From Ascidiella aspersa (taxonomy: Eukaryota), in NCBI GenBank assembly GCA_963924565.1, contig OZ004610.1:6448001-6512000 (forward strand): 64,000 nucleotides of DNA. The letters run 5' to 3'. Each line of letters opens with the position of its first letter. Positions within the stretch are counted from its first letter, which is position 1. Below the pieces are notes generated by a model that saw nothing but the letters and a program-made list of their open reading frames with translations, made no database searches and was not told the DNA's origin. Both the position numbers and the translations under genes were made by a program. Of this stretch, positions 11,287 through 52,074 are shown in pieces.

Positions 11287-14200
11287 ATGTTTGTGAAAAC
11301 TTTACAATGGTCTATAATCGCTTGTCTGGTTTTATGCTTTGGATTAATCCACTTTTCCTCAGGTAGTTAAGAAGTTTTAGCTGTCCGCTGTAGTACAAGT
11401 CAAAACTATTTCAACTGTTAATTATTGTTTTTCTTCTTGATGTAGGCATATAGACTTTTTAAAAAAAACTATTGGTTTACTTTTTAGCGCCTCGTGGTTT
11501 AGAATGTCGTTCATTGTTGTTTTTCTTTCTTTTATTGTTTGTCTGGTATATATATGTTTTCTCCTTTAGTTGCATTTATATTGCCCTGAGGACGATTGAC
11601 GGAATAGGTCAGGGGTTTTCAACATTTTTTTGCTCATGGCCCACTTAATTAGTAAAAAAAATGGCGGTGGCCCATCGACGTTTAATGTAAAACACCAAGT
11701 TTCAACAAAATAATAAATTAATAAAGCTTGTACATTGTTTCAAATGTGTTACGTCGCCCGATGCTTAATGGCTTGGTTAGAGACCGCCCAGACAAGTAGC
11801 TCAATATATATGCAGGCGAGTGAAAGACACACTCTTCTGTTTTTGTAGGAAAACGAAGGGGCGTAAACGCATGACCAACAATTGAAGTAACACATATACA
11901 CACCAACTATGATCTGTTTTAAGCCAAGCAGCACGTGGCTGTTCAATTGACGCAGATGCTAAAACACTGCAACTAAAAATCACCACAGCAAAAATAAGCC
12001 ATATTTGCGTACTATAGCAACGTTAAACGATATTCAGTACGTACAACATATACATCATTCAAAACTACGTCAACGTTATTTTACAGAGAATATAATTACT
12101 CTACTTAGCTACGTTGAAAATGGTCACCGGCAAACAACAGTTTCAAGTCTTAACTTTGCTACAAAGCATTAAACAAGTTATTACCGGCAAATGTAAAGTA
12201 AAGAAGTCCTAAAACCTTTTTAATTGCAGCACACCAACAGAGCTAAAAAAATCGGCAGCACACCTACGAAATATATGTTGATCGACAACATCAGCAAATA
12301 TGATGGGCAGCCAATAGAAAAACGAGCAGTTTATAATGAAATGCGCCGAAGTCGCCGAAAATTTTACGTATTACATTCCTTTATCTTCTGATTTTGCGGT
12401 TTTGCAGACTTTCTTAAAATTTCTGAATCCAGTCAAAGTCCTAAAAATTGTACTCCCTTACAATAGCGCATGGTTGATCTCTTACACCTGGAATATTGCA
12501 TAAGGTCAAAATACCTACCTTAATAAGATATACATTTTTCGCGACAATTCGCCTGATTAAAAAGTACCCAGAAACACAAGTAATACACCTACGGAAATGT
12601 CGCGGCACACCGGTTACGGAGCACTGTCCTAAACCAGCAGAATGCTCGCAAACAAAACCTAATACTATGTAAACAATAATGTCACAAACATAATATTAGG
12701 TTGATGTGTTTGCCATTTACCTGTCGGACTCTTATGTGTTCACAATTACATGATTTTTTATATCGCTGTATCCTGTATGTCAAGCTCTGTGGCGCACTGA
12801 AAACAGCGTAATGGCCCACTGATGGGCCATGGCCCATAGATTGAAAACCTCTGGAATAGGTGGTCGAGACGTTGGCACTTTATTAAAATTTTGCCGAACA
12901 ATGCCCGGCAGCAACATCATATTTAGTCGTTTTCTTTGATCGGTAATAAACTGCGTTTTTCTTAGACGGTCAACCTTGTTTTGTCCAAGTTTAAGTAATG
13001 CCTAACAAGTTTATCGGCGGAGTTTGGTTTAAATTCTTCTCTTTGAAACATTACAGGTCAAGTGAGATCAACATTTCGCTGCAAGAACGGTGTCGAGATA
13101 TCCGTCGGAAATTTCTGCAACGGAGTTCAGGACTGCGACGGAAGTGACGAAACAGCCGGAAACGCGTCGTGTCCGCTTTGCAACTTTCCCTCTGTCAGGT
13201 GACCCTTTCGAGAATGTAAAATTAAATTTTATCTAAAGAAGCACTTCATCGTAAGAAATACTTGATTTTTAAAATGGTATTTTTCCAGCACTTTTGTTTG
13301 TCTCCTCGGTCTGGCACATGGAAATTAACGAAGAAATTATCTTTAAAATCAACCTGTAAACAAAGTGAAGAAAAATTTTTTAAATATCGTTTTATCCGCA
13401 TACGGTGAAAGCGAATTTTATCCAGCAAAATGCGCGTTTTCTGCAAACATACTCGTTTTATAGTAATATTTATTGACTTATGCTGTTCCATAAAATTCGT
13501 TTTTCTGACAATAAATTAAATTTAGCAGTTTGTAGCCGAACTCAGCGCACGGGCCAGTTTATAAGGTATTTCTTTAAACAATTGCATTTGCTTGAAATGT
13601 TACTTTCCCGGGGACTCTAGATTTGAGTATATTCATATAGTTTTAATCGGTAGTTGCTTAGTTAAGAAATCTTTATACAAAACGATTAGGAGGTTTGCAT
13701 TCTCTTTAGAATATCATCCGCTTTGCTTAGAATTGTGTTTGCTTTAAAAACATTTTGCTGATGCACACAGAACTGGTCGTCATGCCAAACAACCTTAATC
13801 CTTATTTTTAGACATGCAAATTGCCATCTTATTTGTAAAACAAAAAGTCTACTTTGTATTTCAGTTGCACAGTCCCGCCTCGGAACTTTACCTGCCAGAT
13901 TGACCGCGAATGCATCTGCGATGCTTCTATTACCTGTCCCGGTATAACACCTTGCGATCTTGGCTGTCCAGGTTACTACAGGTAAGATAATTTTCCAGTT
14001 TCGAAATACAGCGAATCTTTTGCATACGTTAAAAATAGAAAGGGGTTACAAACTGACAAACTTTATGACAACTTGGATTGCCATTTAGCTAAAATTAGCA
14101 GAGCAGCAAACAATAAGTGAAATCCAATTTATTGATAATGAAGAAAATACAATAAATTATCATTTTAAAATCCAATGCGTTTGAAACACGTTGCACTTCG

Positions 14201-17200
14201 TAGATATGATAAAAATATATTTTAAAAAAGAGCCACAACCTATGTTAGTTTTCATCTTGTTATGGGCTTGGTATGCTTTTCATAAAAGTACGGTACGTTT
14301 CAAGATAAAAATCGCTCCGTCTTATCGCAAATTATGGCTAAAATTCTCCTAACTATTTTGTATCAGATCGGCACCGATACCACCCTGGCATCGGACGGAG
14401 GCCGGTACTATTACTAGATATTAGGTATCGCCTCCTATCTGATATTATCAGTAATCTCTACTGGTATTTGCTACCCAGGTGCAGCAAGACGAACCAGTGT
14501 GTATTACGTTCCACTCTGTGCGACGGCGATCCCTGCAACGGTTGCCCGGAAGACGACGACGATTGGCCGACAGGGATCGGTTTCCAGTGCGTGAGGAACG
14601 GCCGCTTCTGTCGTCTGCCGCAACAGCTGCTCTGGGACAGTGTGCAGGATTGCGCAGACGCCGCCGATCTTTGCTACAAGTCGGCCTTCAAAAACGACGG
14701 AAGGTTTGGAAAGCGTTTATTTTTAGGTGACGTTATTATACGTGGGCCGAAAATGGTATTACTAACTAGGGATCAAATAACTAATGATTTGAAAAGTACT
14801 TAATTACCGCATACTGTAAAGTGGCATAAGCTTCTGGCCCAAGCTTCAAAACGACTTTGCCCTTATTCAGTGTGGTCCAACTATGTTTTGTCGCAGGTCT
14901 TTAAGGGCATTTCGTTTGAAATGCCCGCCAATGTTACACGGGTGGATCTATCATTTTAGTTTGGGGCCATAAATAAATCTTACATGTGACGGTAAAAAAG
15001 GCAACAAAATTACACAGAGCATAGTGAAGTAGATGACATGCTATAATACATAAAATACAATAAAATCGCCAAACAAATTGCGTTTATATCATTATGGTTG
15101 GCAAAAACTGAGCAACGAAATAACTAGGCAGGAAATTCAGCATTGTGTGGCAATAAGATGTGATTTTTTTTTTATTTAATATCCTCACTGGTCTATATAA
15201 AAATAAAATCTGCATATGACATTTGCCCCACGACCCGCGTGTCTGTGGCTAGACTACGCCAGACTTGGACAACTAGATTTATTTTAGCTTTTTAAAATTA
15301 GATTAGAATTAGAATTAGAGCATTTCAGTTTTTCCAAATTAGATTTGAATTAGAATTAGATCATTTTGAGTTTTCTCAAATTAGAATTAGAATTACCGAA
15401 TTCTTAAAAAAAACGAATTTGAACTAGAATTTAAACTAATATTACATTTTATTATTCACAATCAATTACATTTAAATCGAGAAGTATTTTAATAGGAATG
15501 TGCATGTCAATTATGTGTGTGCTAATTTTTAAGCATTTTAGCATATGATTTTTAGTCCGTGAAAAATACCTTTCAACCAAAGAGTTTGAATTCAAATTCT
15601 TTGTCTTCACTAAGAGACTAAAAATGTCGTTGGACAAAGTAGGATTTTTGGTAAAATCCGAATTAGATTAGAACTAGAATTAGAGCACACAAGCAACTCA
15701 CAAATTAGATTAGAATTAGAACTAGCCGCATTTTGCTCTAATTCATTGAATTAGAAAACTAGAATTAACTAGTTGTCCAAGTCTGGACTACGCTGCTCTG
15801 GTCTACGATCCAACCAATGATTACAGTTGATAATCAGTCACAGTAGAATATCACCAGTTTCTTAATTGGTTTCGGTTAACCTCATTTGACGTTGATTAGT
15901 TTTACCTGTTTATACGGACTCTTTTTATTGCTTGTCAGTTTGTTGAAGAAATTGTTAACCTCTGTCATAAACCTTTTCTTACACTTTAAAAAGTGATTGG
16001 CTTTGATGATGATTGATGACACAAAAGCATTGAATAAACCTTTTGCGGTTATTAGTCATTGACAACACTGCGTTCGCCATTTTTTTATTGTTTTGTTGAT
16101 TTAAATGAAGTGAAGTTTAACCAATCATGATTATGCTGAAATTGCAATTGGTTTTTAACAGTGAAACCTATAATTAGACAGTTTTAAGATTCAAAATGCA
16201 ATTGCTTGCCCTTTTATGAACTCGTTCTCTTATTGGTCTATTAGAGATTTACGAATGCTTCCCGGAACCGTGTTTGACGATCAGAAGTGCTTCATGTGTT
16301 TGGACGGTTCGATGATCGTGCTACGTCACAAGGTCTGTGACGGAACAATCGACTGCTCCGATATGTCGGATGAGTGCTTGTGCGAGAGGCAACTGGCAGA
16401 TATCTGTAACAAAGTGCAGACTTCACACGGAACGTAAGTCATGTGTCTTGGATTCAGTACGCATTTGAAGTTAACCCAGAGGAACGTGGTTCCCTTAGCT
16501 TTGGCGTATGTTAATAAGACTGTACATGAAATGGTTACTCTGCCGCGATGTCCTACAATTGATTAATGTTACGGATATATGAGTATGTCACAGTTCCTAC
16601 TTGCTAAATGTAGCTCTCAACATTCGTATAGACGTTTTTCCAACATTGTATTTTGTCATAAATTAAATCCACGACGTTTGTAACTAAGCGATCAAATACC
16701 GAACTATAACACAGCAGTTTTAGTTAACAGTGGCAAACTTGACAGTACCGGTATTCAATATACATAGTTCTTCAAGTTATTGACTTAAGTTATTACCACA
16801 CTGGAAATTCGTAAAAAAAGAATCAACATTTGTAAAGATGTTCGTTGGGTCTTGTTGATTGCTCGACAGCAAACGTGACAACGTGTGTGAACAGAACATG
16901 GATATGCGACGGAGTTGTCGACTGCCCACTTAATCTGGACGAGAAGTAAGTTTACAGAAAACACATATAAACTGAATTATTGGATTTGAGATTAGGTTTG
17001 AGAAACTGTTTTGGTTCACGTTTTGCAAGCATTATGTCACGCGTTTCTCTTAATTTAGATAGCCATTCAATCTGATCCGCACAAAATCTAACAACGCCTT
17101 TGTTTGTTCGAAGGTTTAGTTACTGCAGAGGAACGCTCCAGTGTAACAAAGGTTTACCCGATGACGCTCTGACAGAATGCAGGTAAAGCTTTTTATAACC

Positions 17201-20200
17201 TTCATTGCAATGAACACCGAAGTTTACGAGAAATGAGACTCGCAGTTGGATAAATTTGAAACTAGCGATGTCTGTCCATACAAGATCGGAGCCGATACTC
17301 GATGCACAGAAGGTGTATCGGTAGAAGCCCGATACTAAGGTGATATCGGTGCCGACCCGAAACCAAGTTAATATATCACGTTTTTCAGCGATTCTACCTG
17401 GAAACGACGTTTCGTTAAGAAATCGTATAGGTCAACAACTGATGGTTAATACAGGCTAAATCAAGTTTTGGCTTAATCACTTAAAAAATAACTTTAAACG
17501 TTTCAATTTATCTATTTTGCCTGTTTGAGCATAGTATTGACGTAATTGGTTTTTGTCAAAAATATGTGATATAGGTATCGGTATTGCTATCGGAATATTG
17601 TCGCAGACTAGATCGGGACACGATCCCCAAAGTAGCTGCTAAGGATAGGAATGACTTTACTTTCTCGAGCAAGACGTTTATTGGACAACACGATAATCAG
17701 TACGGCAAATAACCATGCACACCAAGTGCTCGCATAAGGCTACAGTTTGTCTCTAACCAACGAGATTGCAAACTGTGCTCAAAATGCGTCCGATTCTCTC
17801 GGTATCCACCCGACGAATGATATCAAAACGACACCACGCAATAGCAGACGAAATCGACACAAAGATATCACGCAGCGCCGAGAAAACCGAGGCTGCGAAA
17901 TTCACACAATGTCCTATTCCTGAGGGGAAACTGTGGCGACGGGTAGCCGACCCAGACGGCAGTTCCCGCAGCCTAGCGCATTAGGTCCGCACAAAGGCGC
18001 TACAATAATTAAATTTGTGACAAATATAATATCGAGTATTCAACATCCATACTTAAAACTACACTGCCTTGTTGGCCTAATTAAAACAAAAAAATCAAAA
18101 GTTTGATGACAGACATTGATGATGATAACGCTTAATCAATTTTTAGGCCAGGCTCTCTTTTCGAAACTTAGGGTTTAAAAATTGTACAGTTATCACGAAA
18201 AGACTAATATTTACGAAATATTAGGGAAACCAACCTATTTGTTTGAGTAGCATGATGATAGTAAACATAAGCCTTCAGTTTAACGAGGAACATGTTAAGC
18301 CCAGTTACCAATTAAAGCATGTGCATTAACTACACGTTTCCTACCAACAGATGCCTAAACGTTCAAAGGGAATGTAGATACAAGGAACCCAACTGGCCCA
18401 AAGCAACGACCGCTGTCCTGTGCAATGGGGTAGACGAGTGCCCCTTGGCTCCTGGGGCTGGCTGGGTAGACCCTCCTGGGTTTCCTACAGACGAGTGCGT
18501 TGCAACTTGTCCAAACCGAACATTTGGTTGTACTGTGCCCTACAAGACTGGTATATCCGTAGCTCCGCCATTTTCCAACGTTTGTCCATTCGTAAGTACC
18601 AAATACAGCAAAAGTCTGCACTACTCAGTGGTAAAACTTGGGTTAGTGAGAAAGTTTTAGGGGCTGTGCAACTTATTGAAAATTTAATGACTGTCAAACC
18701 ATATTAAAAGTAACACATCATTTTGACTATATGTTGTAATAATAATACATATTTTGACCACTTATGTTCAGCAACGGGAAAATTATCGTATCATAATTTT
18801 TAATTATTTTTGTTCAAAATGTCGTTGTGGCTCAGGAACATAATATATAGGTTATCTTAGTAATTCTTAAATTAGAAATATCAATCCATAATATTTAATA
18901 AAATCGAAATTGATTTGTTCTGACTGACAATTTTTTTATCCACGTCGTTACAATTTGCGCCTTTCATCAACAAAGAAACTTAGTTTGTTAAAAAGTGCAT
19001 CAAGGAACCTATATAGCCTTACAGTTGTGGTTAAGTTGGAATAAGATACAAAAAAGGCTTCCCCACTGCAATGAATACATAATGCGCAGTCACGGCCATA
19101 TTCTGGCAGTAGAAATATCGTAGAACATGAACTCGCGTACACTCACATGACAACACTGGACAGGTAAACAGAGTGAGTGGCACCTAATTCAAACAACGAG
19201 CTCATCCAGGTTTACACCTGTCAAGTCGTTTTCTGTGTGCGTTTCAGAACCGCTCGGTGCATACGGAGCTGGTAAATCTGAACAATCAAAACGTGTGCGA
19301 TGGCATCATGGACTGCATTCCAAGCGGGTTTGACGAACGTTTCTGTCCGAACCGTTTCCCGTGCAAAAGCGGTAAGTACGTCAGCATCCTTCGGACGCAG
19401 ATCTGCGACGGTGCGAAGGACTGCGACAACGGGGAAGACGAGTTGAGGCAGAATTGCACGAAGAGGTTTTACTGCCCCTCGCTTAATGCCACCAGGGTAA
19501 GTGTAGGCGGGTAGAAGGTTGTCGGTTCGTTTCAATTGAAGCATATTTTGAATTAATGTGAAATACGAAGTTAAGGCAATAAGTAACTTTAGCCATATTA
19601 AAGACTTGAATTTGTAGAAATATTTTTGTTTAATTGTAAATTGACTTCACCACCTGTTTAATCCCCTGAAAATCAAGGGACATTGGTTCACAATCATGAC
19701 AATAATAGCCGTTTTTTTCTTTCTTTTTGGGCAAAGTTGACAGATATATTTTTGCCGAACAAGTCATTGGGATATATTTTTGATTTATTTCTTCTTTTTG
19801 CTTTATAATCATTCAACTATGTCTCTTCGGCTTCTGTCAGTGTATTTTAGAAAAAAATAAAAAGTAATACGGAAGCGCCTAATAAATAAATGCGTTTCTA
19901 TTAGTTAAGTGGTGTATTTATGGAGGCTTAAAAGCCGCTGGTTTCCCATAAAGTCCATGGTCATCAAGCATCACATTACTTTAGTAATTAAAATTCGAAT
20001 GCTTTTAGGAAAATAATCTCTGTTGTTTTATTGAAACCAAGGTGTCGGTTCCAAAGACATCTTTGTGCAACCAAATTATCGACTGCGACAATTCGGCGGA
20101 CGAGTCAAACTGCACAACCGACGGGAGATTTTACTGCGAAAGTGGAAAACCTCTCTTCGTTTTGAAGAACCAGGTGATCACTTAGCAAGCGGAGAAAATC

Positions 20201-23196
20201 CGTGGATGTGGTTTGTGACAATTAAAGTTTAAGCAACAACGGCTAAAAGTTTACTTTAAATCAAATTCGACTGTATATAAAAAAAAGCCAGATAAGTGTT
20301 TTAAAAGCTTTGCTAACGATAAATCTAAAAGTCATATTTTAAAGGCCTTTCCCATCAACGAACAAACAACCAATCACGTACCACTTGCCCCCTCCCCCTT
20401 ATGATTTTGGGGCAAGAGATTTAGAACAAAACAAATTCAAGACATCCATAATAAGAGGGTTTACCTAAATGTTCTTTTTCAAGATCAGGGACGGTCGCGG
20501 CGACTGCAGCGATTGGAGCGACGAATGTTCTTTCAAGTTTCAAACCTCGGCCAACGTTTTGTCGTCGCGATACGAACTCATCAGCAACGTTTTTCTCAGG
20601 GCAATAGTGTGGATTATGGCCACATTCGCACTGTTGGGAAACGCGGTAAGACCTTTATGTAATGTTTCAAAATCCGTGTACACAATTGAAGGAGATAAAC
20701 TAAATGCGTCAAGTCAAACACTTTATTTGAGAAAACAAGAGACACTGAGGATTATAGCAATTTTATAAAACAGCTTAGTTTTATTTAACTGCATACAGTA
20801 CATCCGGGTTTGCATACAGTAAATCCTTATTGCTTTTTTATGTACGGCAGATTGTTTTGGTCGGAGAAACCCGCAAGCTTCGCAAAGTCCTAAAATGCGG
20901 TGGTTCCGCTTCGCTGCGCACCAATCATATGCTCGTGATGAACCTAGCGGCGGCGGACTTTCTGATGGCGATTTACCTGCTGATGCTTGGAGTATCAGCG
21001 GCTGCTTACAGTGGAAGTTACTGCTCACAATCACTATACTGGCTCACCAGTCAAACTTGCCTGGCCATGGGTGTCCTTGTTGTACTCTCAAGCGAAGCTT
21101 CCATGCTCACAATGGTTCTGCTCACTATAAGCAGGCTATACGCAATCTCCAACGTGAGTAATGCAATCTAATTTAAGTTAGTTGCTTGCTAATATTATTT
21201 TATATAGTCCATATCTATACTGAAAAACACAAGATCCGAAAATATTTTCGTTTAAATATTTACCTTTCGTAGTTATACTAATTAACATCTGAACGAGAGT
21301 TTTTGTTAAGATCGATAGTACAGGCCGTTTGGGAACCTGTGTATATTTATGCAATAGTGAAATCCCATAAATCATACGACGAAATTCCTCCATAAATCCC
21401 ATAAGCCATACGACGAACTTTCTCCATTTCTTTGCAGCCGGTGAGAGCAATATCATCTCCACACAAACGCTCTGTCATGATTGCCCTTTTTCTTATCTGG
21501 GGAATTTCTTTAACGTTGGCTCTGGTACCATTGATCAGCTACCACCAGAGCACCTTCACCGAATCAGCTTTGATCAAGAGCAATCCGCTCTTCGGCAACG
21601 TTGTAGTCAGCTTTGACGCTGCCAAGAACATGACCCTCAAGCTGCTGACTTACTCCAGGTACTTTACGAGTCTTCCCGCGTCCACTGCAGGTCAGGTCCG
21701 AGCCATGACTTCGTGGGATCAGCTGCAGCAGTTTATCGGTGCCCACGCCCCTGGAGAAAGCTACCTGAAAATAAAGAGCTACTTTGGGTAACTTCAGTAT
21801 TGTAATGACTAAAAGCAATGTCTAAAATTAAGTGCACTTAAGACTGTTTTTAAATAATTTTACTTGACTTTAGTTTATTGTGTAAACTGACCTGGCTTGA
21901 TTATTTAAGTCGTTTGGAGAAATGACTTGACTCGACTTAGATATTTTGGACAAATGGGTTAAAATAAAGTGTTCTCATTAGACAATTTATTTGTAAAATT
22001 GGTTTATTTATTACGATTTTTGCATTTAAAACATTTTGCTTGCAATATGTTGCGTTTTTGTTATTTTTTAGTCGAGGTACTGGTTATGATCTGACAAGTA
22101 TACCAATTTTAATAGTTTATCATTTAATTGGATTTAACTCGGAGATGACTAGCTCTAATTATGACTTGGCTGGGACTTGTCTTGGACAACTTAACTGGTG
22201 ATTTATTCAAGATACTTGACGTTGACAAAACTAAAACGATTTATTTAGCTTGTTAAAATGTGATTCATTTTTTAAGATATTACAGTGCCAGTAGTGTGTG
22301 CATTCCCAACTTGTTCGTTATGCGAAACAACGGAGCTTGGCAGTTCTCCATCGCCATTTCGATCATCAACTTTCTCGGCTTTATCTTTGTGGCTGCCGGC
22401 TACATTTTGATCATTTTGAAAACAAGACAGTCGGTCGGTAAATCTCAGTCGAATAAGTCAGACAAGAAATCATCAGGTATTTGGATGTTTTACTTCCATC
22501 ATTTTTGCATTTGAAAAATAAGTCTGGCTTGCGTGTTTATTCTAATTTCATTTGTTATAATATCCTAAAAAGGACGATTCGAATCGCTTCATACTCATCA
22601 TATATTTTTCTTCGTTTTACAGTAATGACGTAAAATATACTATATAATGATTTTTGTTAAATACCCAACCTTGATCGTTAAGCTCCTAAGTAGTAAATGA
22701 TCGAAAATTAAGTAGCAGGACGTAATAGCACTTTCAAAACACTAATATGATCCTATGCCACAACATTACTTACGGGTCTGACGGTGTAACTTAAACTATT
22801 TTTACCATACCCTCAGCAATACAGCGCAAGATCGTCCGTCTGATCGCGACCGACTTCTGCTGCTGGATCCCGCTCTCCATCATGGTGTTCGTCAACTTCA
22901 GCGGAGTGAGGATCGACAGCATCTCGTACGCGGTCGCCGCCATCGTCCTGCTTCCCATCAACAGCGCCCTCAACCCGATCCTCTACTCCAACTTCACCGA
23001 CAAAGTCATCGACAAGATCAGGCAAAGGCATAAGAAGGCCTTCGAAAGCAGGGCTACCTCGAGCCAAGCGACCGGTATCACTCATCACGACAACACTCAC
23101 CACGAGATTGCACATCATGAGCAAACTCACCATGGAAAGATTAATAGTGACAACACTGATCATACAAAGAATCGTCATGGAAACACTTACTTGTAG
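11287..23196 (+). CDS. LDLa-repeat rhodopsin-type GPCR (RXFP/GRL101-like 7TM, no LRRs), paralogue 1, about 980 aa
   Basis: 15 GT-AG exons in phase: 11287-11362 (signal peptide MFVKTLQWSIIACLVLCFGLIHFSS), 13057-13198, 13865-13981, 14479-14703, 16245-16433, 16838-16945, 17114-17182, 18351-18591, 19248-19496, 20042-20173, 20484-20645, 20851-21153, 21438-21787, 22277-22476, 22817-23196; sum 2943 nt. Repeated CDGxxDCxDxSDE modules; 7TM motifs LLGN, NLAAADFLM, LSSEAS, TDFCCWIP, PINSALNPILY. Confidence 0.9.
11582..12877 (+). ncRNA. Degenerate Penelope-type minimal hammerhead ribozyme motif, split by a hAT insertion
   Basis: Removing the 11610-12853 element and one TSD gives TGCC-CTGAGGA-C-GATTGAC-ggaatag-GTGGTC-GAGAC-GTT-GGCA. 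This has stem I TGCC/GGCA, a CUGANGA core, stem II, and GAAAC mutated to GAGAC. Confidence 0.5.
11610..12853. mobile_element. Non-autonomous hAT element, 1244 bp, in intron 1 of GPCR paralogue 1
   Basis: TIR CAGGGGTTTTCAA...TTGAAAACCTCTG; perfect 8-bp TSD gaataggt (11602-11609 / 12854-12861). Confidence 0.9.
15260..15785. mobile_element. hAT-type MITE with (TTAGAA/TTAGAT)n subterminal repeats
   Basis: Perfect TIR CAGACTTGGACAACTAG...CTAGTTGTCCAAGTCTG; perfect TSD gactacgc (15252-15259 / 15786-15793). It appears to be inserted in the 3' end of an older element starting at about 14868. Confidence 0.92.
23080..23193 (+). repeat. Degenerate 15-nt coding tandem repeat (His-rich C-tail of GPCR paralogue 1)
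   Basis: actcatcacgacaac actcaccacgagatt gcacatcatgagcaa actcaccatggaaag ... encodes THHDN THHEI AHHEQ THHGK INSDN TDHTK NRHGN. Confidence 0.75.
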
Positions 23197-24684
23197 CATT
23201 ATCTACAAATACCAAAACAAGTTCTATATGTTAGTAAATTTAAAGAGGAACAACGTGTAGCAATATTTTACATTTTGTTGATATTCCCTCTTTGTATTGT
23301 GAACACCCATCTTCTCATTACCAACTAACCCCACGATCAGGGGAAACAGGAGGCCTACGTAGTAGTTGGTGCTAAGTCAGCACGATTGTTAATAAATGTA
23401 TATTTTCAACATACACCGAAATTTTCACACCGCATTACATGTTGGCTGCTGGAACCATAATATTAATGATTCGATAAACGTTTCGAAGCATTAATACTCA
23501 ACGCCAGACCAATATTGCACAATTTAAATTTTGAGTATGTTGCACTTATTATTGATCCCTTCCGCATCGTATAAAACAGAACAGATAACCACTTAATAAA
23601 GGGTCCATTCGCGACCCATTTTTGAAGCCTTTGCGATTCAGCGGTTATGATTTGCTGATCAAGTAAGGATACCAAGTATATCACAAGTGTATACATTTGA
23701 TCGTCATGACATAACTGGGCAACCCACAAGCCTTCTTGATTTAAAACAACTCCACTAAATCGAGATGATCCAGCTTTAACTTTACAGTCCTGTATACTCT
23801 ACTCAAAGAATTGTCATACAACTCATCCACCCGCGACATGTGGTTGGACAGTATTCCAACTTAAGCTATTCGACATTTACGATCCCACTGTGCCGCCTTG
23901 ACACATGCGAACGTCTGACTCGGAGATTGAGTGTAATGTTATTTAGTCTTACTCGGGCCCCGAGACGCCAACAATATAAATCAAATCCGCTGAGGCTTAT
24001 AGAGTCTTATAGAACTCTATATGGTACTATATTTCATGCAACCGAACAATTTGTAAAATGCGTATTTTATATGAGCCATTTCAGTTAGGAAAGCCATTTT
24101 ACTGTCAAACACTGCAGAAACCCGACACTAAGGAAGTGAAGGTGTTTGTTTCTACAATCGGTGCTTCGAGGATAAATCTAGATAAGGTTGTCCAGAAAGT
24201 CCAACAACATTTATTTAACTTTAAGCTCAAAAGTCTTATTAACTCGTCGCTCCTTAGCTTATGAAGACCAGCAGGCAGCAAAATTCATGCTATATATTTA
24301 GCAAACCATTGTGCTCGTGTCGCTGCTCTCAAGTTGGTTGCAGGCAAATTTCGTTTGAAGTTAGCAATAGCAAACGCCTAGCGCGATTTCCTCAGGGCAG
24401 TTCGGTAATTGGTCTTCATGCGCTAAGCTTCTAAATGCTATACGTCGTTCACTAGAACTGCCTTGTACACATTCCTAAACTTCCGCTGACCATGTGCACA
24501 CCAGCATACTTTTGCCTTAGGTTAAGGCCACTTGCTTATATAGGGTAAGCAATAACAATGTCAAAAATCAAAAGCCAATAAAACACTGACTGCTATAGTT
24601 TTTATGTGCCTGTGATCCCGTGCTTAAATAGGCAACGGAAATTCGTTTTAAATCCAACCAAAGGGAAACTGACACAGCGTATTT

Positions 24685-25337
24685 AAAAAGCGTTTATTAG
24701 ATTTAACAACCGATCCGTTAGAAATCAGTGCATTTCTAAGCAAAAAGGTCTACGACAATCAGGGCATCCAATGGCAGAAAAGTCTAGACTTTTAGACCTT
24801 GAGGTCCTGGCAATGCACTGATTTGGACCTTTAGGTAAACTCCTGGTGAAGATAAGTTAAAAATATTCATTAAAACTTCAGAAAAGATAACAAAAAATAT
24901 GAGATAGGATTAATAACACTTGACCCACCTAAACCCTGACGCTAACCCGAATCCTAACCCAAATAATGTGCGTTATTTCAATAATTCTTTAAATGCTGGG
25001 GAAAAAAGCCCAAACTCGGATGGTTTCTCGTCCATTGTATTTACGATTATTACGTCACAATTGAGGTATTGGGGCCTGAAGCGTTATAATTATTAAATTA
25101 TCGCACATTATTTGGGTTAGGGCGCTAGTTAGCGTTTGGGTTTGGTTGGGTCAAGTATTGTTAAACTTAATCTTCTTATGCACATTTGTTAATGCAAATT
25201 AGAGCATTGTCCAAGGTCTCAAAGTCTAAAAGTCGGACTTTTTGATCCTTTGAATGCACTGATTGTCGTAGACCTTTTTGCTTAGAACTGCACTGATTTC
25301 TGACGGATGGGGTGGATTTAAAGTAAAACATTTTTTT
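24685..25337. repeat. Nested inverted repeat (foldback) between the GPCR paralogues
   Basis: About 24685-24825 is the reverse complement of about 25197-25337. The inner pair 24910-24972 / 25102-25163 carries a CCTAAC/GTTAGG-like motif. Confidence 0.85.
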
Positions 25338-26278
25338 AGGAGCCGTAAAAGAAGTGAGCATACCATTTTAATTCGGCAGTGTTCGATATAATTTCAATTA
25401 TCAAAATGATTTGGATAAATCGCTCATGGCCATTAACACCATAGTTGTATGGCTGCATAGAAACGAAGTAAAACAAAATCGCAAACGCCCAAAAAGGATG
25501 CAGGCGTTTATCTTGTACGAACGTAAGTTGAAGAGCACTAACATAAAGACAATTTAAAACAAAATCATTCCGAAAACGCTTTGAATTTAGTGTTTATCTG
25601 GTTTGTTAGGAAAAAGTTCACCGCTGGTGGAACATCACAAAATATCCACCAAAGTAAACCGTAACTTTAACTGTCGATATATAAAAATATTTCCTATACT
25701 CTCGCTCGATTAATCAAAACAACGCAAAAAGGAAGCTGTCACCGCCTTGCGCCCTAACGCTATACTGTTGCCCTTCGTCCTTCCACGCTTATAGCAGAAT
25801 ATAGGGCAGCCTCGTCTATAGCAGGTTTATATCATTCCGTCAAATATCTTCATTGATTCAATCAATATTTCATTGATTAGCGAATCAAAGATAATGTAAT
25901 GAAAATCTAGTGCCTGCTCTCCCAGTATCATAAAAAGAAGCGAAGCGAAATAACTTGATTAATTAGTAAGGCACGAGATATACCAACACAGCTTTTTATA
26001 AATTAGACGCTTGAACTGAGCCTTAAGCGTTTCCTGGTAAACGCAAGTCACTTGTATGGCAGCATTCAGAAAAGGATGTTGTCATTCAATGTTAAGCGCC
26101 CAAATTTACTTCAGTAGTCGTGTTTTAAATGCTGATTAACCTTGCCAAGTTGAAAGACTTTTTACGTTTTGTGCACGCCATAGGTATATATATTTAGATC
26201 GGTTGCTGCCTGTTTTGTTCACAGAAGCTGTTGTTAGGCTATTTAAATCAAGAAGCTTTATTTACTCACTGCTTCGTT

Positions 26279-29200
26279 ATGCTTAGTAAAATGTTACAAA
26301 GGTATTTTACCTTATTGCTTTTTTTGAGCCTTGGATATGTTCCATTTTCCGCAGGTAAGCATGGCTGGCACAGTTCGTACAATTAAAATTTTCGTTAAAT
26401 CCTTGGTTTTTCAAAACAAAGCTCATAAGTCTAACATGAACAAACAGCATTTTCTTGGTCAAATTTAATTTACTCATAAAGAATATATTTTCATGTTTTT
26501 TATGTTCTAAATGTGTGCTTAAATGCAACCTAATTCTTACGATTGCTGTTACAAATATACCTACGAACTCTTAAACTGCTTTCCGCCCCTTAAGGATATT
26601 TTAATCTAGTTTAGTCAAAGTACAAGAGCGTTTAACAATGTAATTGGTAACCTCGTGGAAATATTATGTCTCAGCCCAATGGAGCTCGACATTGCGCTGC
26701 GAAAACGGCGCCGAGGTTGCCGTTCAAAAATTTTGCAACGGAGTTCAGGACTGCGACGGAAGTGACGAAATACCCGGAAACGCTTCGTGCCCGCTCTGCA
26801 ACTTTCCCATAGTCAGGTGAACACTTGTAGGAATTCGCAAATATTCCTTGACTTGACAAAAATGAACTGACCGACAATATATGGTGGTTTGTCACTTTTT
26901 TGCAGTGTTGTAAACAAGTCATTTGAAATAACTTCAATCCAAGATAAGTATTTTGAATAAACTTTAAGTTAAACCCTTATCATAAAAATAAAACTTTAAA
27001 CTATTAAAATGTGCAAACTCCTTCGATTATGAGCAATAACTCATGTAAAAACTAACATAAACGCAACATATAGCAAGCAAATTGTTTATGTGCAAAGAAT
27101 ACCTAATTTTATAATTAATTGCTTAATGAAAACAATTTATTTTAACCCAAGTTATTCGTCCAAATGACTTAAGTTAAGTCATGTCATTTGCCCAAAAGAT
27201 TTAAGTCAAGTCAAGTCATTTAAAAACAGTGACTTAATTGCACCTACTTAAAGTAGTTGACTTCAGTCATTATAACACTGCTACTTTGATTAACGCAGCT
27301 GCTTTGCATCGATCTGAGAATATATGAGGACGTTTTTATCTCCAAATTCTGTTTTTTGAACACAGCATGGTCGACATTTTTAAATTACTATTTTTCTTGT
27401 TTTTGAAAGCTGTTATTTTACCTGTGAAACCTGAGTACGTTATATTCCAGTTGCACTGTCCCCCCAAGGAACCTTACCTGCCAAATCGGCCGCGAATACC
27501 TCTGTAATGCGTCTGTTACCTGCCTCGGCATAACACCATGCGATGTTGGGTGTCCAGCATACTACAGGTGAGAGAAGCTTTCGAGTTAAATATAAACACG
27601 TCACTTAAACATTAACTGCATTTCAGGTAAATGGTAATATAATTTTAGCAATTTAGGTCTACACATTAAATAGAATATCAAATCCCCAACATTGTCGTAA
27701 CAAACCAAGCCACGTTAATTGCTTCAGAAAAAAAATGTATCAGTAGGCCTATGGCCTTATTGATTAAGGCAATTTTATAGGTAATCAGTAAAATCACATA
27801 TATGTCGGTTAAAGTTATCATCCCGAATTGAATTTTCTATACCTACTTTAAAATTAATATGGGCATTTTTGAAGGTTTGGTGCAGCATTTCACGATGGTA
27901 CCCCTCACTGAGTAATAATGTAACACAGGTGCAGCACAACGAACCAGTGCATTTTACGTTCAACTCTGTGCGACGGTAATCCTTGCAACGGTTGCCCGGA
28001 AGACGACGACGATTGGCCGACAGGGATCGGTTTCCAGTGCGTGAGGAACGGCCGCTTCTGTCGACTACCGCAACAGCTGCTGTGGGACAGCGTGCAGGAT
28101 TGCGCAGACGCTGCAGACATTTGCTACAAGTCGGCATTTATAAATGACGGGAGGTAAAACAAAAACTGAACAGCATATCCGGTGGCAGAAGATAGTTACG
28201 CAAAAACATTTTTGTGTTGCTGTGTTGAAAGTTTTGACTGTTAATTACAATTTAAACTTTTATGCTTAACCTGGTTGTGGGGTCACTGTCTTACCTTAAA
28301 AACAAATTATAAAAAAATAATGCAATAGGAATAGATGTTTGAGCATAGTAGTCATCCTGATTAATGCAGTTTAAACTTTCTTGCTGACATTTTCTTTTTT
28401 ATATGTCTTAATTTTCCACAGGTCATAGATGCCTGGGCCACATATTTTTTTTAGATTTTTTCAATTTGAAATGTTTCAACTATGTCTTAATCGGAAGACA
28501 TTTCGCGAAAAGCTAACACCGTAAAATTTAACTCAGCATACTATTGCATAGTTATTGAGCTTTGTTATCTGCTATTCGCAAATGTTTTGTCCATTAGAGA
28601 TTTACGGAAGCTTCCCGGAACTGTGTTCGACGATCAGAAGTGCTTCTGGTGTTTGGACGGTTCCATGATCGTGCCGCGTCACAAGGTCTGTGACGGAACA
28701 ATCGACTGCTCCGATATGTCGGATGAGTGCTTGTGCGAGAGGCAACTGGCAGATATCTGTAACAAAGTGGAGACTTCACACGGAACGTGAGTTGTTTGTC
28801 TTATATTTAGTGGTTCTTATATAGAGTCGTTTTACCGAAACAACCGAACGTGTATGGTAAGGTCCTTCTCTCTGCAAACTTAAATGATGTTATTTGCAGT
28901 AGCTAACTGTCTGTATACACAATATACCATTGACACACTGCCTCTGGAGTGTTTTTAACATGTTTTTACCGGTTAGAATATATAAGTCTTCACAAGCGTT
29001 GCGTTTCTAATTCTAAAATATTAACATTACTCAGATCATAGTGATCGAAATCTTAACATGATATAGTTGACTGACCATAAAAGGCTTTTTTTATTAAAAA
29101 AAACATATGTTTATAATAAAAAACATATGTTTATAACGAACAGCTTGCTACCGATATCGTGCAGCAGGCTTCCGCAGTGTATTGCAAGATTTTACCGTAC

Positions 29201-32200
29201 TTTTCAATATCATTGGGTATGGTATGTGAAGACCAGTTTCTGTTTTAATGGTTGTAAAGATGTTCGTTGGGCCTTGTTGACTGCTCTACAGCGAACGTGA
29301 CCACGTGCGTTAATAGGACAAAGATATGCAATGGAGTTGTGGACTGCCCTCTTAATCTGGACGAGAAGTAAGTCACGCCATATAACTATTTTATAGATGA
29401 ATAATTGAGCTTTAGATTATTTCGCACACTTTCTAGGCCGGATGAAATCACTTTTCGTTCAGTTTTTGCTGTAATTGCCCTTATGAAAGTTTAGGTGCCA
29501 CTTTTGTTTTGTAAGTGGCAATACCAATATTATTTAGTTTCGTGACTTGATACGCCTATTAACTGTAAATAAGTCGCGAATTGTTCGTCACAAGATTTAG
29601 CAATTGCTTTGCTTGCTCAAAGGTTCAGTTACTGCAGAGGAACGCTTCCGTGTAAAAAAGGTTTACCCGACGACGCAATGACAGAATGCAGGTAAAATTC
29701 ATAATTTTTTTTATATTGATTCCATACCGAACTAAATATAATAACCATAAAGCTTAAACGGGCGACGAAAGCAATCAGTCAAAAGCAACCGAGCGATTTC
29801 TAGCATCTGGATCAAAATTTAACAATTTCTCTGAGAATTTCAGTAAAGCAAGCCGATAACTGACGGAGAAATAAATGTCAGTCGCATTTACCAAAACTAT
29901 ACATTCACCGAATTTGCCGTTCTGATATTTATACCATCATCCCATCAACAGGTGCGTAAACGTTTCAAGGCAATGCAGAACAAAGCAACCAAACTGGCCT
30001 AAAACAACGGCCGCTGTGCTGTGCAACGGTATAGACGAGTGTCCTTTAATTCCGGGCGGTGCATGGGCCGTACCACCAGGTTATCCAGATGACGAATGCG
30101 TTGCTTCTTGTCCAAACACGACCTTTCACTGTACAGAGTCTGCAAGTGGTGTAATTGACCTATACCCGCCTTTCATGGCCAGTTGTCCTAGGGTGAGTAT
30201 CTATCAAAGCAACATCTTGTTTAATTTACTTTTTCGTCCGATAAAGCTTGGGCGAGTTTTTTTGTGTTAACGGGGTTACCAGTGTTGTTAATGACTTAAT
30301 TCAATGACTGTGATTTGACTTAATTGACTTACGTCATTGTTTTTAATTAACTTGACTTGAGTAATGACCTGTTTTTACCAAGCATTTTATGTAAAAGTAA
30401 AATACCGAAGACAACTTTCTTGCTATAGAATGCGTTTTTGTTATTATTTAGTTACGTTAGTGCTTATATTTGAAAGAGTTTACCAATTCTAATAGTTTAA
30501 GGTTTAATTTTTATGACAAGGACTTGACTTGGAATTGACTTGCTTTATTATGACTTGACTGGGACTTGACTTGTTATTTATTTTTGACTTGTTGTTTTAC
30601 AAATGACTTGACTGAGACTTAATGCATTTCAAAATGACTTGTTTACAACACTGGGAGAGGGTAACAGTTGGCTTAGCATACGCCCCGTGTTCGCCAGGAC
30701 AGCCCCGATTTTAAGGCTTCGCCCCAGCGTCTCGGTTAGTCAACCAAAATTTCCCGTCTTTGTCAGCCAACTTTTTCATATATTACTGTACAGATAACTT
30801 GTATATTGGCTCGTTGCGATTGGTCTAATTTGCCCAATTGATGAAAAGTGTTAACTGCGGTTTGATGACATTGCGCTGAATGTGAATGAAATTGTTATGC
30901 TACTGTATAGCGTGTAATTTGACCAGTGGTTGTATGGTGGCTAGATCAGCATTAGTATGCTAGAAGAAAGTGTTATGTCCCTATAACTACAGGAATTCAA
31001 AATTGTTCGATACCACTTTTAAATAGATTCTGCCGAAAAAGTAAAATTTATAAAGGCGAATTTTCTCGCGAGAAATATTTAAGTATTTAATTTAACGGAA
31101 ACAATCAAAATATGACGAATTCTTGTTACGTCATGCCAAAATGACCACAAAAATTCTGAATTTGATGACTGTTTTGAAGTCAATCGATTGTAGACCAAGA
31201 AATATGGTAGGCCTGAAGTCCTTGTTATAATTAGGGTCTTAAATAAAACACATAAGCAACACATAAAGTAGAAGAGCCTGTATTATACCAAAAAAGTTAT
31301 ACAAATATATAGAGACAGAACATTTACCGATAGTCAAATATGGGTTATAGTCAAATTGTCTAAAATACAAGTCTCAAATCAGCATTATAATAAAAAAAGC
31401 ATATCTTTTACAGTAAACAATATAGTGACTTATATTGGGTTCAAAGAGTTGCAGAAAAGAGATTTGTTGTTTGCAGATTATTCATCACAATGTAATAAAG
31501 TTCGCATTATAAAACGGGTGAAAAGGATTATAACGATACCGTTATAAATAACACTTTAAGACCAGCCACCATCCCATACCATTTTCTGTTTCTCGTGCCG
31601 TCCTCCGGTATTTCTCCATGTAAACAAGTTGATATTTGACTTGTATTTCAGTTTGGTTGACCCACGTTCAAACTAATTAAAAAGACGATTTGCGACGCCT
31701 TAATATAACTCAATTCTCCTGGTTGGTGTACCGGCCGTCAACTGACTTCCCGTGTGTGATTCAGAGCTCGGCACAACCGCGACCGGTCCTGCTGAACAAT
31801 AACAACGTATGCGATGGCATCATGGACTGCATTCCAAGCGGGTATGACGAGATGATCTGCCCAACCCGATTCCCGTGCAAAAGCGGTAAGTACGTCAGCA
31901 TCCTTCGGACGCAGATCTGCGACGGTACGAAGGACTGCGACAACGGGGAAGACGAGTTGAGGCAGAATTGCACGAAGAGGTTCTACTGCCCCTCGCTCAA
32001 TGCCACCCGGGTAAGAAGCGCTGTAAAAAATGCCCGATACCTGTTTTAACGCACCCGTATACGTGAACATAAGTGACCTAAAACAATTCCTGATCCTGAG
32101 AAAACATTGCCATGTAACACTTATAATTCTACAATATAAGGAGGAAATGTTTAACAAATAGCGGTAAAGTTTGGTTTCATGTGCCCGAGTGTAAACCTTA

Positions 32201-35200
32201 AACCTTGTACATGGTCGGATCAACGAATTCGATTATGCGATTCGTATAATATATGACAATGGAAGTGTTGGTGTAATATATTTGATATAGTGTCATAAAC
32301 AACGCTTCTATACCAACTTCTAAGTTGTTGATTTAAAAATGAAATTGTTCAACTTGCGTGTTTTGCAATAAATAACAAGTCAAGTCATGCTATGCCAGTT
32401 AACTCAAATTACTCACAACAAACTATTGAGATTTAAATACGGTACGTTATTCAATTTCAAACCAACTTTAGAGCTAGGATCTAAAACTAAATAGATGAAT
32501 CAGGTGGCACTATATAAAGACAAATTGTATCCATTCTCGACAAGCTTTCGCACAACTGTGCTTCATCAGGTCAGATCAAAAGAGAAAACCTATGAACCTT
32601 GTAGTTTATGATTGTGGTCTCTTCATAAAGCTCGTTATGTTCTCCTAAATCATTCTCTTCTGTCCAACTAAAACAAGGTATCAGTTCCAAAAACATCGCT
32701 GTGTGACCAAATAATCGACTGCGATAACTCTGCCGACGAATTGAACTGCACAGCGGATGGAAGGTTTTACTGCGAGAATGGAAAACCTTTGTTTGTTTTG
32801 AAACATCAGGTGAAAGTTATATTTTAACCGCGATATGATGACGAAAATGGGTGTAAATCCGATCTATATAACATTGGGCCTGATACATTTTTATTTAATT
32901 GCCTTTGTTTTGCTAAACGTTCCTTAGACGGGTTCCTAATGGCAGCTTGTTTTATTTCCCTGACTTAAAGATGTTAGCCTACTTGTTGACTATAGCACCT
33001 TGTCTACAGTTTGGTACAATGTAACACAAGTCACAACGTATCACAGAGAAAAAATAGATTAAAAAATCATGCACGCCTTTTGTATAGGCCCATCAATGAA
33101 GCAGCAAAATTAAAGATTTGTTTTTTGACAGATCAGAGACGGTCGTGGCGACTGCAGCGATTGGAGCGACGAATGTTCCTTCAAGGTTCAAACCTCGGCC
33201 AACGTTCTGTCCTCACGATACGAACTCATCAGCAACGTTTTCCTCAGGGCTATTGTGTGGATCATGGCCACGTTCGCACTGTTTGGAAACGCGGTAAACA
33301 CCGCGTGATTTTAGACAAATTATTTTTAAAATGGTTCCGTAATTCACTTTGTGACTGTCCACAGATCGTTCTTATCGGCGAAATCCGCAAGCTGCGCAAA
33401 GTGCTAAAAACTGATGGTTCCGCTTCGCTGCGCACCAATCACATGCTCGTAATGAATCTAGCAGCGGCGGACTTTCTGATGGCGATTTACCTGCTGATGC
33501 TTGGAATTTCGGCGGCTGCTTACAGCGGAATTTACTGCTCACAGTCACTGAAATGGCTCACCAGTCAGACTTGCCTGGCAATGGGTGTCCTTGTTGTACT
33601 CTCAAGCGAAGCTTCCATGCTCACAATGGTTCTGCTCACTATAAGCAGGCTTTATGCAATATCCAACGTGAGTAAAACACGGGTAAACTTGGCATTAGCC
33701 GTGCATTAGGTTGCGATAAAAAGTAGCCAGATCTCACCTTTTGTGAAATCATTGAAACCAAGTGAGGTTAAAATTGCATATGCTGAGTGTTTATGTATAA
33801 GAATCTTATACACGAAATCAATTTAGTAAAATATTACAAGTTTAGTGATATGAACAACCAAAACATTTCTGTAGAACGTGTCGTAAAACTAGTTATATAA
33901 AGCCCCGTGTAAAGGTGGTAATTGCAAGAACTTACCTATAGACTGTAAGATTGACTTTCTTCGCAGCCGGTCAGAGCATTATCATCTCCACGCAAGCGCT
34001 CGGTTGTTTTTGCTCTCTTTCTTATTTGGGGAATTTCGTTCACGTTGGCTCTTGTACCATTGATCAGCTATCATCAAAGTTCCTTCACCGAGTCAGTTTT
34101 GATCGAAAGCAATCCACTCTTCGGCAACGTTGTAGTCAGCTTTGACGCTGCCAAGAACATGACCCTCAAGCTGCTGACTTACTCCAGGTACTTTACAAGT
34201 CTTCCCGCGTCCACTGCAAGTCAGGTCCGAGCCATGACCTCGTGGGATCAGCTGCAGCAGTTTATCAGCGCCCATGACCCTGGAGAAAGCTACCTGAAAA
34301 TAAAGAGCTACTTTGGGTAAGTGATTCGCCCAACTGTAAAGCAAAAAGCAAAACCACAAAAAATAGCGCAAGGTGTTTTTCCCAATACTAAGATGACGCA
34401 GAACATTCTTTGGCAAAGCCATTTGAGCATTAAGCCTGTTGAATTTCGATCCATGTGTTTTTAGATATTATAGCGCCAGTAGTGTGTGCATTCCCAACTT
34501 GTTCGTGACACGAAACAACGGAGCTTGGCAATTTTCCATCGCCATTTCGATTATCAACTTCCTCGGCTTTATTTTTGTGGCCGCCGGCTACATTTTGATC
34601 ATTTTGAAAGCTAGAGAGTCGGTCGGCAAATCTCAGGGGCATCAGTCCGACAAGAAATCGTCAGGTGGGTGTATGATTGTCAATCCTGAATCCTTATTAT
34701 ATTAAAATGAAACACTCTTGTACCTGACTATACTGGCTTATACGAATTATTATTTTCTTGATGTTCTATAAATACCAATTGTAAATGGTTAGTATAAGTG
34801 ATGATGACTTAAGTCTTAATCAATGACTTGGCTTGTATGCATCTACTATCGTACTGTTATTAACGGCTTGACTCAGTTCTTTACAGCGAAATACTTGACT
34901 TGGTCTAAATCAAGGGTTCTTAAACTGGGGTTCATGGACCCCTTGGGGGTCCATGAAGATCTAATTGAAATATTACTGTTTATTTAAGAAGTAATAAATT
35001 TATTCAAGAAATCAATTTAATTAAAAATAAAACGGTTTTGCACTGAATGTATTTAGACTACATTTCACTTTCACAATTTTGGACCAAAATCAGCAAATTT
35101 ATGAAGTCTATTTGTACTGTGACGTCAATTTAAGACGTCATTTTTAAAATGTATTTGCCTACAGTGGTCCACGCGAGATGAAAGAAAATTTTACGGGTCC

Positions 35201-51800: not shown

Positions 51801-52074
51801 GTTCACTGCTTTAATCCTCACCGAGCTGCTAATGATTGCGCTAACCATCCGTACCTGGCACTGGCTCATGCTGGTCAGCGAGGCCTTTAGCCTTGGCATT
51901 TACGTCGTGTCGCTGGTGGTACTCAAGGACTACTTTGATCCGTCTTTCCTCACCACCCCCGCCTTTCTCTGGCGAGTGGCGCTGATAACAGCCGTCAGCT
52001 GCTTTCCGCTTGGCATTATCAAGCTTATTCGGCGCAAGGTTTCGCCGCCCAGCTATTCCAAGCTTGAAGAATGA
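48832..52074 (+). CDS. ATP9: P4-type phospholipid-transporting ATPase, class II (ATP9A/ATP9B/Neo1 family), single-exon CDS, 1080 aa
   Basis: Uninterrupted ORF with [51 protein letters not shown] and [13 protein letters not shown]. The C-terminal SPPSYSKL is typical of ATP9. Confidence 0.96.

Follow-up and report, generated by a model that had tools for sequence, protein, structure and literature searches.

Genes A and B, two neighbouring genes for LDLa-repeat class A G-protein-coupled receptors (GPCRs), lie in a stretch of 64,000 nucleotides of Ascidiella aspersa DNA (the window, G000:C4:6448001-6512000) and share long tracts of identical nucleotide sequence in their exons. The tracts are best explained by recurrent, DNA-templated, non-allelic gene conversion that is confined to exons by intron divergence and is GC-biased (probability about 0.7). 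That conversion of some kind has taken place is very probable. A preliminary description, made from the letters of the window, had proposed recurrent short-tract conversion confined to exons, and this proposal is supported by run tests, by local trees that disagree with one another, and by control comparisons with additional paralogues. The exchange between the neighbours A and B stands, but it is not limited to them, as C and D, two further paralogues of the same contig, are involved too.

Results

Four linked receptor genes

The preliminary description placed the case at 16245-34316. This span is too narrow, leaving exons 1-4 of A and exons 14-15 of B outside; the pair occupies 11287-35789. 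The gene models are as follows.

11287-23196, + strand: gene A, LDLa-repeat class A GPCR; 15 exons, 980 aa; open spliced frame with a single terminal stop
11287-11362, 13057-13198, 13865-13981, 14479-14703, 16245-16433, 16838-16945, 17114-17182, 18351-18591, + strand: gene A exons 1-8, GT-AG sites
19248-19496, 20042-20173, 20484-20645, 20851-21153, 21438-21787, 22277-22476, 22817-23196, + strand: gene A exons 9-15, GT-AG sites
26279-35789, + strand: gene B, tandem paralogue of A; 15 exons, 954 aa; intact spliced frame
26279-26354, 26675-26816, 27451-27567, 27929-28153, 28598-28786, 29260-29367, 29623-29691, 29952-30192, + strand: gene B exons 1-8
31765-32010, 32678-32809, 33132-33293, 33365-33667, 33967-34316, 34465-34664, 35485-35789, + strand: gene B exons 9-15

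All 13 internal exons of A and of B are bordered by AG/GT. In a search of the species' own genome, paralogue C is found about 307 kb downstream on the same contig in the same orientation, and paralogue D about 689 kb upstream on the same contig and inverted; both are intact. The positions and phases of the introns (14 in each gene) are common to A, B, C, and D. Protein identity is 85.8% between A and B, 81.4% between A and C, 79.5% between B and C, and about 62% between D and each of the other three.

Identity tracts change partners along the gene

The tracts and the exons that serve for comparison are listed below.

14534-14613, + strand: exon 4 tract of A; 80 nt identical to B (27984-28063) and 98 nt identical to C
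16324-16416, + strand: exon 5 tract of A; 93 nt identical to B (28677-28769) and 73 nt to C
18351-18591, + strand: exon 8 of A, unconverted control; 49/79 residues identical to B, 23/47 synonymous differences
19356-19468, + strand: exon 9 tract of A; 113 nt against B (31870-31982) with a single mismatch at 19413; absent from C (14/35 synonymous differences)
20042-20173, + strand: exon 10 of A; against B (32678-32809) 44 codons, 39 with the same residue, 19/39 synonymous differences
33187-33249, + strand: exon 11 tract of B; 63 nt identical to C, not to A
21067-21137, + strand: exon 12 tract of A; 71 nt identical to B (33581-33651); absent from C (8/21)
21588-21787, + strand: 3' part of exon 13 of A; identical runs of 80 nt and 39 nt with B (34117-34316), 56 nt also with C
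22822-22988, + strand: exon 15 tract of A, transmembrane helices 6 to 7 (TM6-TM7); differs from C at 3/165 nt, from B at 9, and from D at 7; G or C at the third position of 50/53 codons
35490-35656, + strand: exon 15 TM6-TM7 tract of B; differs from D (G000:C4:5794399-5794565, minus strand) at 2/165 nt; G or C at the third position of 47/53 codons

The long identical tracts reported earlier between A and B are recovered in exon 5, in exon 12, in exons 4 and 13 (80 nt each), and in exon 15, where a further identical run measures 44 nt. The exon 9 tract has the one mismatch described, but a length of 113 nt and not about 105 nt. The earlier count of 19 synonymous differences in the 44 codons of exon 10 is exact. 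Exon 10 is conserved in protein yet diverged at silent sites, indicating that protein conservation alone does not yield tracts.

The partners of the tracts vary. The exon 9 and exon 12 tracts are shared by A and B only, the exon 11 tract by B and C, and the exon 4 and exon 5 tracts by A, B, and C. Partners also change within single exons.

The 165-nt TM6-TM7 island, placed by positions 208-260 of the 7tm_1 profile, is 94-99% identical among all four genes; outside it, D is saturated at silent sites. Between B and D, 2/165 nt are different inside the tract and 946/2574 nt outside it. This is the strongest case of all, and it falls beyond the span of the preliminary description. The B-D tract begins 5 nt into exon 15, ends within the exon, and is not continued into exon 14. 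A diverged intron precedes it and diverged exon sequence follows it, with D-specific sequence on both sides. Within the tract, B and D share variants that are absent from A and C.

Introns have diverged to background

In agreement with the preliminary description, the introns of A and B are unalignable and carry different repeats. Ungapped identity decreases to the non-homologous background beyond about 12 nt at the acceptor side and beyond 20-30 nt at most at the donor side, where the signal is weak. Whole-intron blastn comparison gives hits in 9/84 homologous pairs, nearly all of them repeats or words of 13-23 nt; the exception is a 28-nt flank of 82% identity in intron 14 of B and C. High-copy repeats, recognised from depth bins and self-blast, are located in introns 7 and 13 of A and in introns 2, 8, 9, and 14 of B. 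One family recurs.

21800-22190, no strand assigned: high-copy repeat in intron 13 of A, probably MITE-like (miniature inverted-repeat transposable element); same family in introns 2 (~26900-27280) and 8 (~30280-30655) of B

Intron 13 of C (L006:9257-9485) and intron 13 of A each hold a repeat of the same family, 68-81% alike, which may reflect shared ancestry or separate insertions.

Run tests and local trees

Run tests use same-residue codons only, under three permutation schemes (free, within amino acid, and within codon). The longest synonymous-identical run between A and B is 40 codons, compared with a null mean of 21.7 (p=0.003-0.005). All six pairs of A-D have clustered identity (longest run p<=0.0054, sum of squares p=0.0002), and the clustering holds within amino acid or codon class. 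Among the pairs with D, none is significant without the exon 15 tract; the short, older tracts with D in exons 4 and 5 (28-30 nt) have no significance once exon 15 is removed. Synonymous difference between A and B ranges from 0.07 to 0.49 per exon, and uniform divergence across exons is rejected (chi2=54.9, df 13, p=4e-7). Exon length is not significantly related to synonymous divergence (rho -0.52, p=0.056 for A-B; no relation for A-C and B-C).

Tree-informative sites are clustered as well, with 105 adjacent matches among 194 sites compared with 74.7 expected (p=5e-5). In exons 12-14, the approximately unbiased (AU) test favours ((A,B),C),D and rejects AC|BD (p=0.0017). In the exon 15 tract, it favours A+C and rejects A+B (p=0.0025), and in exon 4 A+B is rejected too (p=0.02). 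The rejections in opposite directions, together with the changing partners, indicate exchange and not constraint. Regionally, exons 7-9 and 12-14 tend towards A+B, and exons 2-6, 10, 11, and 15 towards A+C or B+C. The earlier proposal spoke of shuffling of receptor sequence; the data show homogenisation of conserved segments rather than functional shuffling.

Third-position G+C

For fugu protocadherins, the mark by which converted regions were recognised is raised G+C at third codon positions (GC3; PMC1852091, accessible part). The exon 15 tract has GC3 of 47-50/53 codons in A-D (0.89-0.94); the remaining parts of the genes lie lower, at 0.55-0.58 or about 0.56-0.60 depending on the count (Fisher p 2e-6 to 4e-9). 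GC3 also falls as the local divergence among A, B, and C rises (46 local windows, rho -0.42, p=0.003; control -0.06). It is not raised in the exon 12 tract (0.43). The 2-kb bins of the whole stretch mostly have 32-41% G+C.

Distant paralogues

The controls are six more intron-bearing paralogues on contigs C2, C3, and C7, found as best tblastn matches and compared over exons 4, 5, and 9-15 only. In pairs with these six, synonymous difference is 0.54-0.72 in the tracts and 0.58 outside. Equal conservation of the tracts in distant relatives, which the preliminary description had named as a sign of selection, is therefore rejected, by distant paralogues and not by orthologues. Exon 15 tract GC3 is raised in 0/6 of them.

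Clustering is detected in 2/27 control pairs, each joining paralogues of one contig: a head-to-head pair on C7, 20 kb apart (p=0.002), and a pair on C3, whose p=0.015 would fail multiple-test correction. None of the 23 between-contig control pairs is clustered. The C7 pair is homogenised in the exon 4 (5/28) and exon 15 (9/46) tracts compared with 102/229 elsewhere. Its tract codons are unlike those of A-D, and its GC3 is not raised (0.43-0.45). Distant paralogue H7 has GC3 of 0.75 in the exon 15 tract and still differs there at 13-17 of 35-36 codons. The saturation of the distant paralogues in the tracts and the homogenisation of the C7 pair with codons of its own make a shared nucleotide constraint unlikely.

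The C7 head-to-head pair (L057-L060, C7:15376142-15408945) has homogenised segments of its own in exons 3-4 and 15, with identical runs of 41, 35, 26, and 25 nt.

Short-read contigs

We examined short-read contigs of runs X1 and X2 at the A/B/C tracts, testing the contig ends in or next to exons among 16 pieces listed. In 6/9 tested starts and 1/5 tested ends, the contig terminates exactly 30 nt from the first paralogue-distinguishing base; at the exon 5 tract of A, for example, a contig begins 30 nt before the first distinguishing site. The 30-nt offset is what 31-letter words common to the genes in the reads themselves would produce. The listed X1 and X2 pieces span intron-exon borders with 0-15 differences. 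The contig breaks thus support the A/B/C tracts, and the possibility raised in the preliminary description, that the identity comes from a collapsed or mis-polished assembly, is unlikely for these three genes. Among the 40 letter rows listed of 919, mapped reads carry paralogue-type letters at 16311, 21668, and 22910, which are indistinguishable from cross-mapped B, C, or D reads.

Receptor family and transcription

By eye, the N-termini of A and B are likely signal peptides. In Pfam scans of single exons, Ldl_recept_a is above cutoff in exons 2, 5, 6, and 9 of A and weaker in exons 4 and 10; by pattern, A, B, and C have six LDLa-like cores each, and D has five. No leucine-rich repeat (LRR) family is found in the 14/15 exons of A scanned (exon 1 left out), nor any LRR core pattern in A-D. 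The 7tm_1 profile matches exons 12 and 15 of A (E 1.7e-4 and 9.4e-4), which as single exons are below the whole-protein cutoff. The NPxxY motif is present. As judged from sequence, the layout of A-D is that of the Ciona LDLRR-GPCRs, with several LDL-A modules, without LRR, and with a relaxin-receptor-like seven-transmembrane (7TM) region (PMC2396169, accessible part).

The named relatives are all ascidian (Clavelina, Ciona, and Phallusia) and are called 'relaxin receptor 1-like' or 'GRL101-like', with names on 4/10 clusters examined. Ciona and Clavelina proteins of the same layout align with A along most of its length at 40-48% identity. In a protein tree of exons 11-15 (14 rows including two Ciona, one Clavelina, and one Phallusia protein, without an outgroup, and with proteins unmatched to the gene ids of the Ciona repertoire paper), A-D group together in a separate clade (support 99/97), with the named proteins outside it.

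Genome-wide, at least 150 matches to one TM exon are found, most in open frames of 430-1900 aa, implying large arrays of intronless family members. The matches form clusters, e.g., at C6:7.6-7.75 Mb, C6:1.3-2.4 Mb, and C2:35.3-39.2 Mb. The Ciona LDLRR-GPCR family, in comparison, has 14 members according to the accessible part of its description (PMC2396169). In three distant paralogues, L058, L060, and L067 (C7:15.387 Mb, C7:15.400 Mb, and C2:18.918 Mb), no intron separates exons 3 and 4; either these three have lost intron 3 or other members have gained it.

Exon 13 (21438-21787 in A, 33967-34316 in B) encodes a long stretch within the 7TM region, likely an extracellular loop, without a Pfam match. 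HMMER finds 40 relatives of it, 24-44% identical, of which the named ones are ascidian. A search for homologues among longer proteins found none, which is weak evidence. The C-terminal tail of A (23080-23196) is longer than that of B, His-rich, and composed of short imperfect repeats.

In RNA run X8 (about 6 in 100 reads used), repeat-free exon bins have a depth of 0-1.6, nearly all in one mate orientation. This pattern fits weak sense transcription. No splice joint of these genes is among the 15 joints listed of 1361, the read mapping being dominated by intronic repeats.

Other features of the window

Four features lie downstream of the receptor pair.

48820-52074, + strand: single open frame of 1084 aa, P4-type phospholipid flippase (PhoLip_ATPase_N and _C); intronless, G+C 0.54 in the 50001-52000 bin, in intron-rich surroundings; possibly a retrocopy
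44851-45035: perfect 93-nt tandem duplication, either of recent origin or an error of the assembly
37177-48052: nested inverted repeats, outer arms 37177-39222 and 46622-48052, inner arms 39678-40121 and 41406-42030, 75-88% identity; the nested arms resemble old DNA transposons
59927-60787, + strand: open frame of 286 aa, basic, Ser-rich, without a Pfam match

Discussion

Proposed mechanism

The steps below follow established knowledge of homology-directed repair. The duplications that gave rise to A-D would be old enough for introns and unconverted exons (8 and 10) to approach saturation. Purifying selection would keep some coding segments alike enough to pair, and a break in such a segment would sometimes be repaired from a linked paralogue, with pieces of 60-170 nt being copied. 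Each conversion would reset identity and permit the next, so that the segments could persist as self-sustaining islands. Segments that have drifted (exon 1, exon 8, the start of exon 9, and all introns) would drop out of the cycle. The heteroduplex would halt at the first long mismatch, usually an intron. Repeated rounds of GC-biased mismatch repair would have raised GC3, most at TM6-TM7, which would be the sole island still joining the distant, inverted D.

Several observations weigh against this reading. Exon by exon, synonymous divergence closely follows protein divergence in A-C (rho 0.90) and B-C (rho 0.82), with A-B at 0.22, indicating that selection shapes the location of the tracts. 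The AU tests on exons 9, 10, and 11 reject no tree. Two of the four same-contig distant pairs, those with H7, are without clustering. The control tracts were chosen after A-D had been seen, and the pooled pairs share sequences. The controls are paralogues and not orthologues, and against them a constraint private to the A-D clade is weakened; such a constraint would still leave the conflicting local trees unexplained. Similarity at exon edges is not significantly related to that of the intron flanks beside them (r 0.05-0.18, p 0.08-0.36), and the intron flanks that are shared could be remnants of ancestral splice signals. For the end of one exon and the start of the next, similarity between pairs is correlated (r 0.31-0.42, p 0.011-0.021, at 20-30 nt, in 4/6 settings). 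This correlation is not significant at 45 nt; on the codon alignment it reaches p<0.05 in 1/6 settings, and it decreases to r 0.13 without junction 7-8, on which it largely rests. Significant fragments span the exon 5-6 junction in A-C and B-C, where intron flanks of 8-13 nt are shared too. Finally, X1 or X2 may be the assembled sample itself, and the read support covers the A/B/C tracts and not those of D.

Alternative explanations

Of the two mechanisms offered in the preliminary description, the limit set by intron divergence fits better than a complementary DNA (cDNA) template. A donor consisting of reverse-transcribed mRNA, or of RNA itself, would leave introns untouched, and for fungal ribosomal protein genes a cDNA donor was argued from just such exon-only homogenisation (PMC6993855, accessible part). 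The weak continuity across junctions points the same way, and RNA-mediated events are possible in the family given the implied intronless members and the three distant paralogues without intron 3. Precise intron loss, however, is not seen (0/56 introns in A-D). Identical runs of at least 7 nt into the intron occur at 7/84 homologous pair-sites compared with 10/1092 non-homologous ones (p=8e-5), above background even if ancestral remnants may contribute. Divergence is higher, not lower, at exon edges, where the outermost 8 codons hold an excess of differences (170 vs 150.6, p=0.011 for synonymous and p=0.0004 for all differences). The same tree pattern continues across 4/13 junctions (0.38 expected), compared with 198/411 inside exons. 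Clustering is restricted to same-contig pairs, although a diffusible template should be blind to position. No processed copy of the exon 15 tract is present among 12 assembly matches, in a search that scored the best candidates only, and the single RNA run mapped covers the exons thinly. An RNA-derived donor is therefore unlikely. Mosaic genes produced by unequal crossing-over or exon replacement, instead of short conversion tracts, could account for the regional trend of A+B versus A+C or B+C along the exons. A crossover, however, would bring whole introns, and none align; partners change within single exons; and the B-D tract has D-specific sequence to either side, in a gene that is inverted. 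For the exon 15 tract this origin is already largely refuted, and for the tracts as a whole we regard it as quite improbable.

Preservation without any exchange is still harder to maintain. The tracts could be kept by purifying selection on nucleotides (splicing or regulatory elements, RNA structure, or an antisense frame) or by convergent GC-rich codons, since they sit in protein-conserved segments, exon 15 has a very high GC3, one antisense frame across exon 9 lacks stops in all of A, B, and C, and nonsynonymous and synonymous differences are correlated at the exon level as described above. But the same tracts are saturated in the distant paralogues, H7 being GC-rich there yet diverged, and exon 10 is conserved in protein and saturated at silent sites. 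Within-codon permutation is still significant, and the sharing of B+D versus A+C is at odds with the gene tree. The exon 15 tract folds no better than its synonymous shuffles (-38.5 vs -40.6 kcal/mol). As a cause of the tract, the antisense frame is rejected because it is open in C, where the exon 9 tract is absent and the exon is diverged. We consider this explanation very improbable. An assembly or polishing artefact is extremely improbable: contigs end 30 nt from distinguishing bases, pieces span intron-exon borders, and the scattered mismatches and raised GC3 in the tracts are not expected of mis-polishing.

The antisense stop-free frames over exon 9 lie on the minus strand at 19221-19646 (A, 141 aa) and 31738-32232 (B, 164 aa) and are likely a by-product of codon use.

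Relation to known systems

Non-allelic conversion that is regional and accompanied by raised GC3 is an established process (PMC1852091; reviews PMC3924837 and PMC3924832), and the comparisons in this section refer to the accessible parts of the sources. Fugu protocadherins (PMC1852091) resemble A-D in the partial coding homogenisation among linked paralogues, the sharp borders, the raised GC3 in the converted part, and the homogenisation of separate subclusters to separate sequences. Their homogenised regions, however, comprise hundreds of codons in one large variable exon of close neighbours, whereas the A-D tracts are 60-170 nt long, are spread over a 15-exon gene with unalignable introns, and have partners that vary by exon, one of them inverted, 689 kb off, and at 62% protein identity. 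Fungal ribosomal protein paralogues (PMC6993855) likewise have homogenised coding sequence and diverged introns, but those genes, for which a cDNA donor was inferred, are highly expressed and mostly dispersed. The A-D homogenisation is patchy, bound to one contig, touches intron flanks, and affects seemingly weakly expressed genes; with these contrasts a DNA donor fits better.

The newt Nav1.1-1.3 and Nav1.4 exon 26 case (PMC8476164) also concerns the exchange of short coding tracts, among multi-exon membrane-protein genes that are old paralogues and linked over distances of up to megabases. Unlike the present analysis, it traced specific adaptive substitutions across species. Primate red and green opsins (review PMC3924837) are tandem GPCR paralogues with conversion and with divergence peaks that escape it. 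There the introns are the most homogenised part and an exon escapes, the opposite of A-D, in which the introns have escaped altogether.

A literature search by title and abstract start, with supplements and most subscription journals outside its range, returned no paper on conversion in ascidian LDLa-GPCRs. The term 'gene conversion' has 0 occurrences in the main text, as accessible, of the Ciona repertoire paper (PMC2396169), and a 2026 tunicate comparison (PMC13746493) mentions GC-biased conversion, in its accessible part, only as an unresolved contributor to GC3. The process is thus known, and A-D are a new and unusually clean case of it, carried mainly by the B-D island.

Implications

Should the donor be RNA-derived after all, which is doubtful, reverse transcripts would patch exons of intron-bearing paralogues in an animal germ line, with introns kept, and would maintain a common GC-rich TM6-TM7 signalling module. 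Such RNA-templated patching would join receptors with diverging ligand-binding modules, even when their DNA differs by 37% and they lie inverted at a distance of 689 kb.

With DNA-templated conversion as the preferred reading, the case suggests that conversion can persist long after overall divergence, and that the same receptor segment has been homogenised twice, with different sequences, in one genome. The locus offers a small, testable setting for GC-biased conversion and minimal homology in a tunicate. For this expanded orphan GPCR family, trees, dates from synonymous divergence, and reagents for polymerase chain reaction or knock-down that are derived from TM6-TM7 will mislead.

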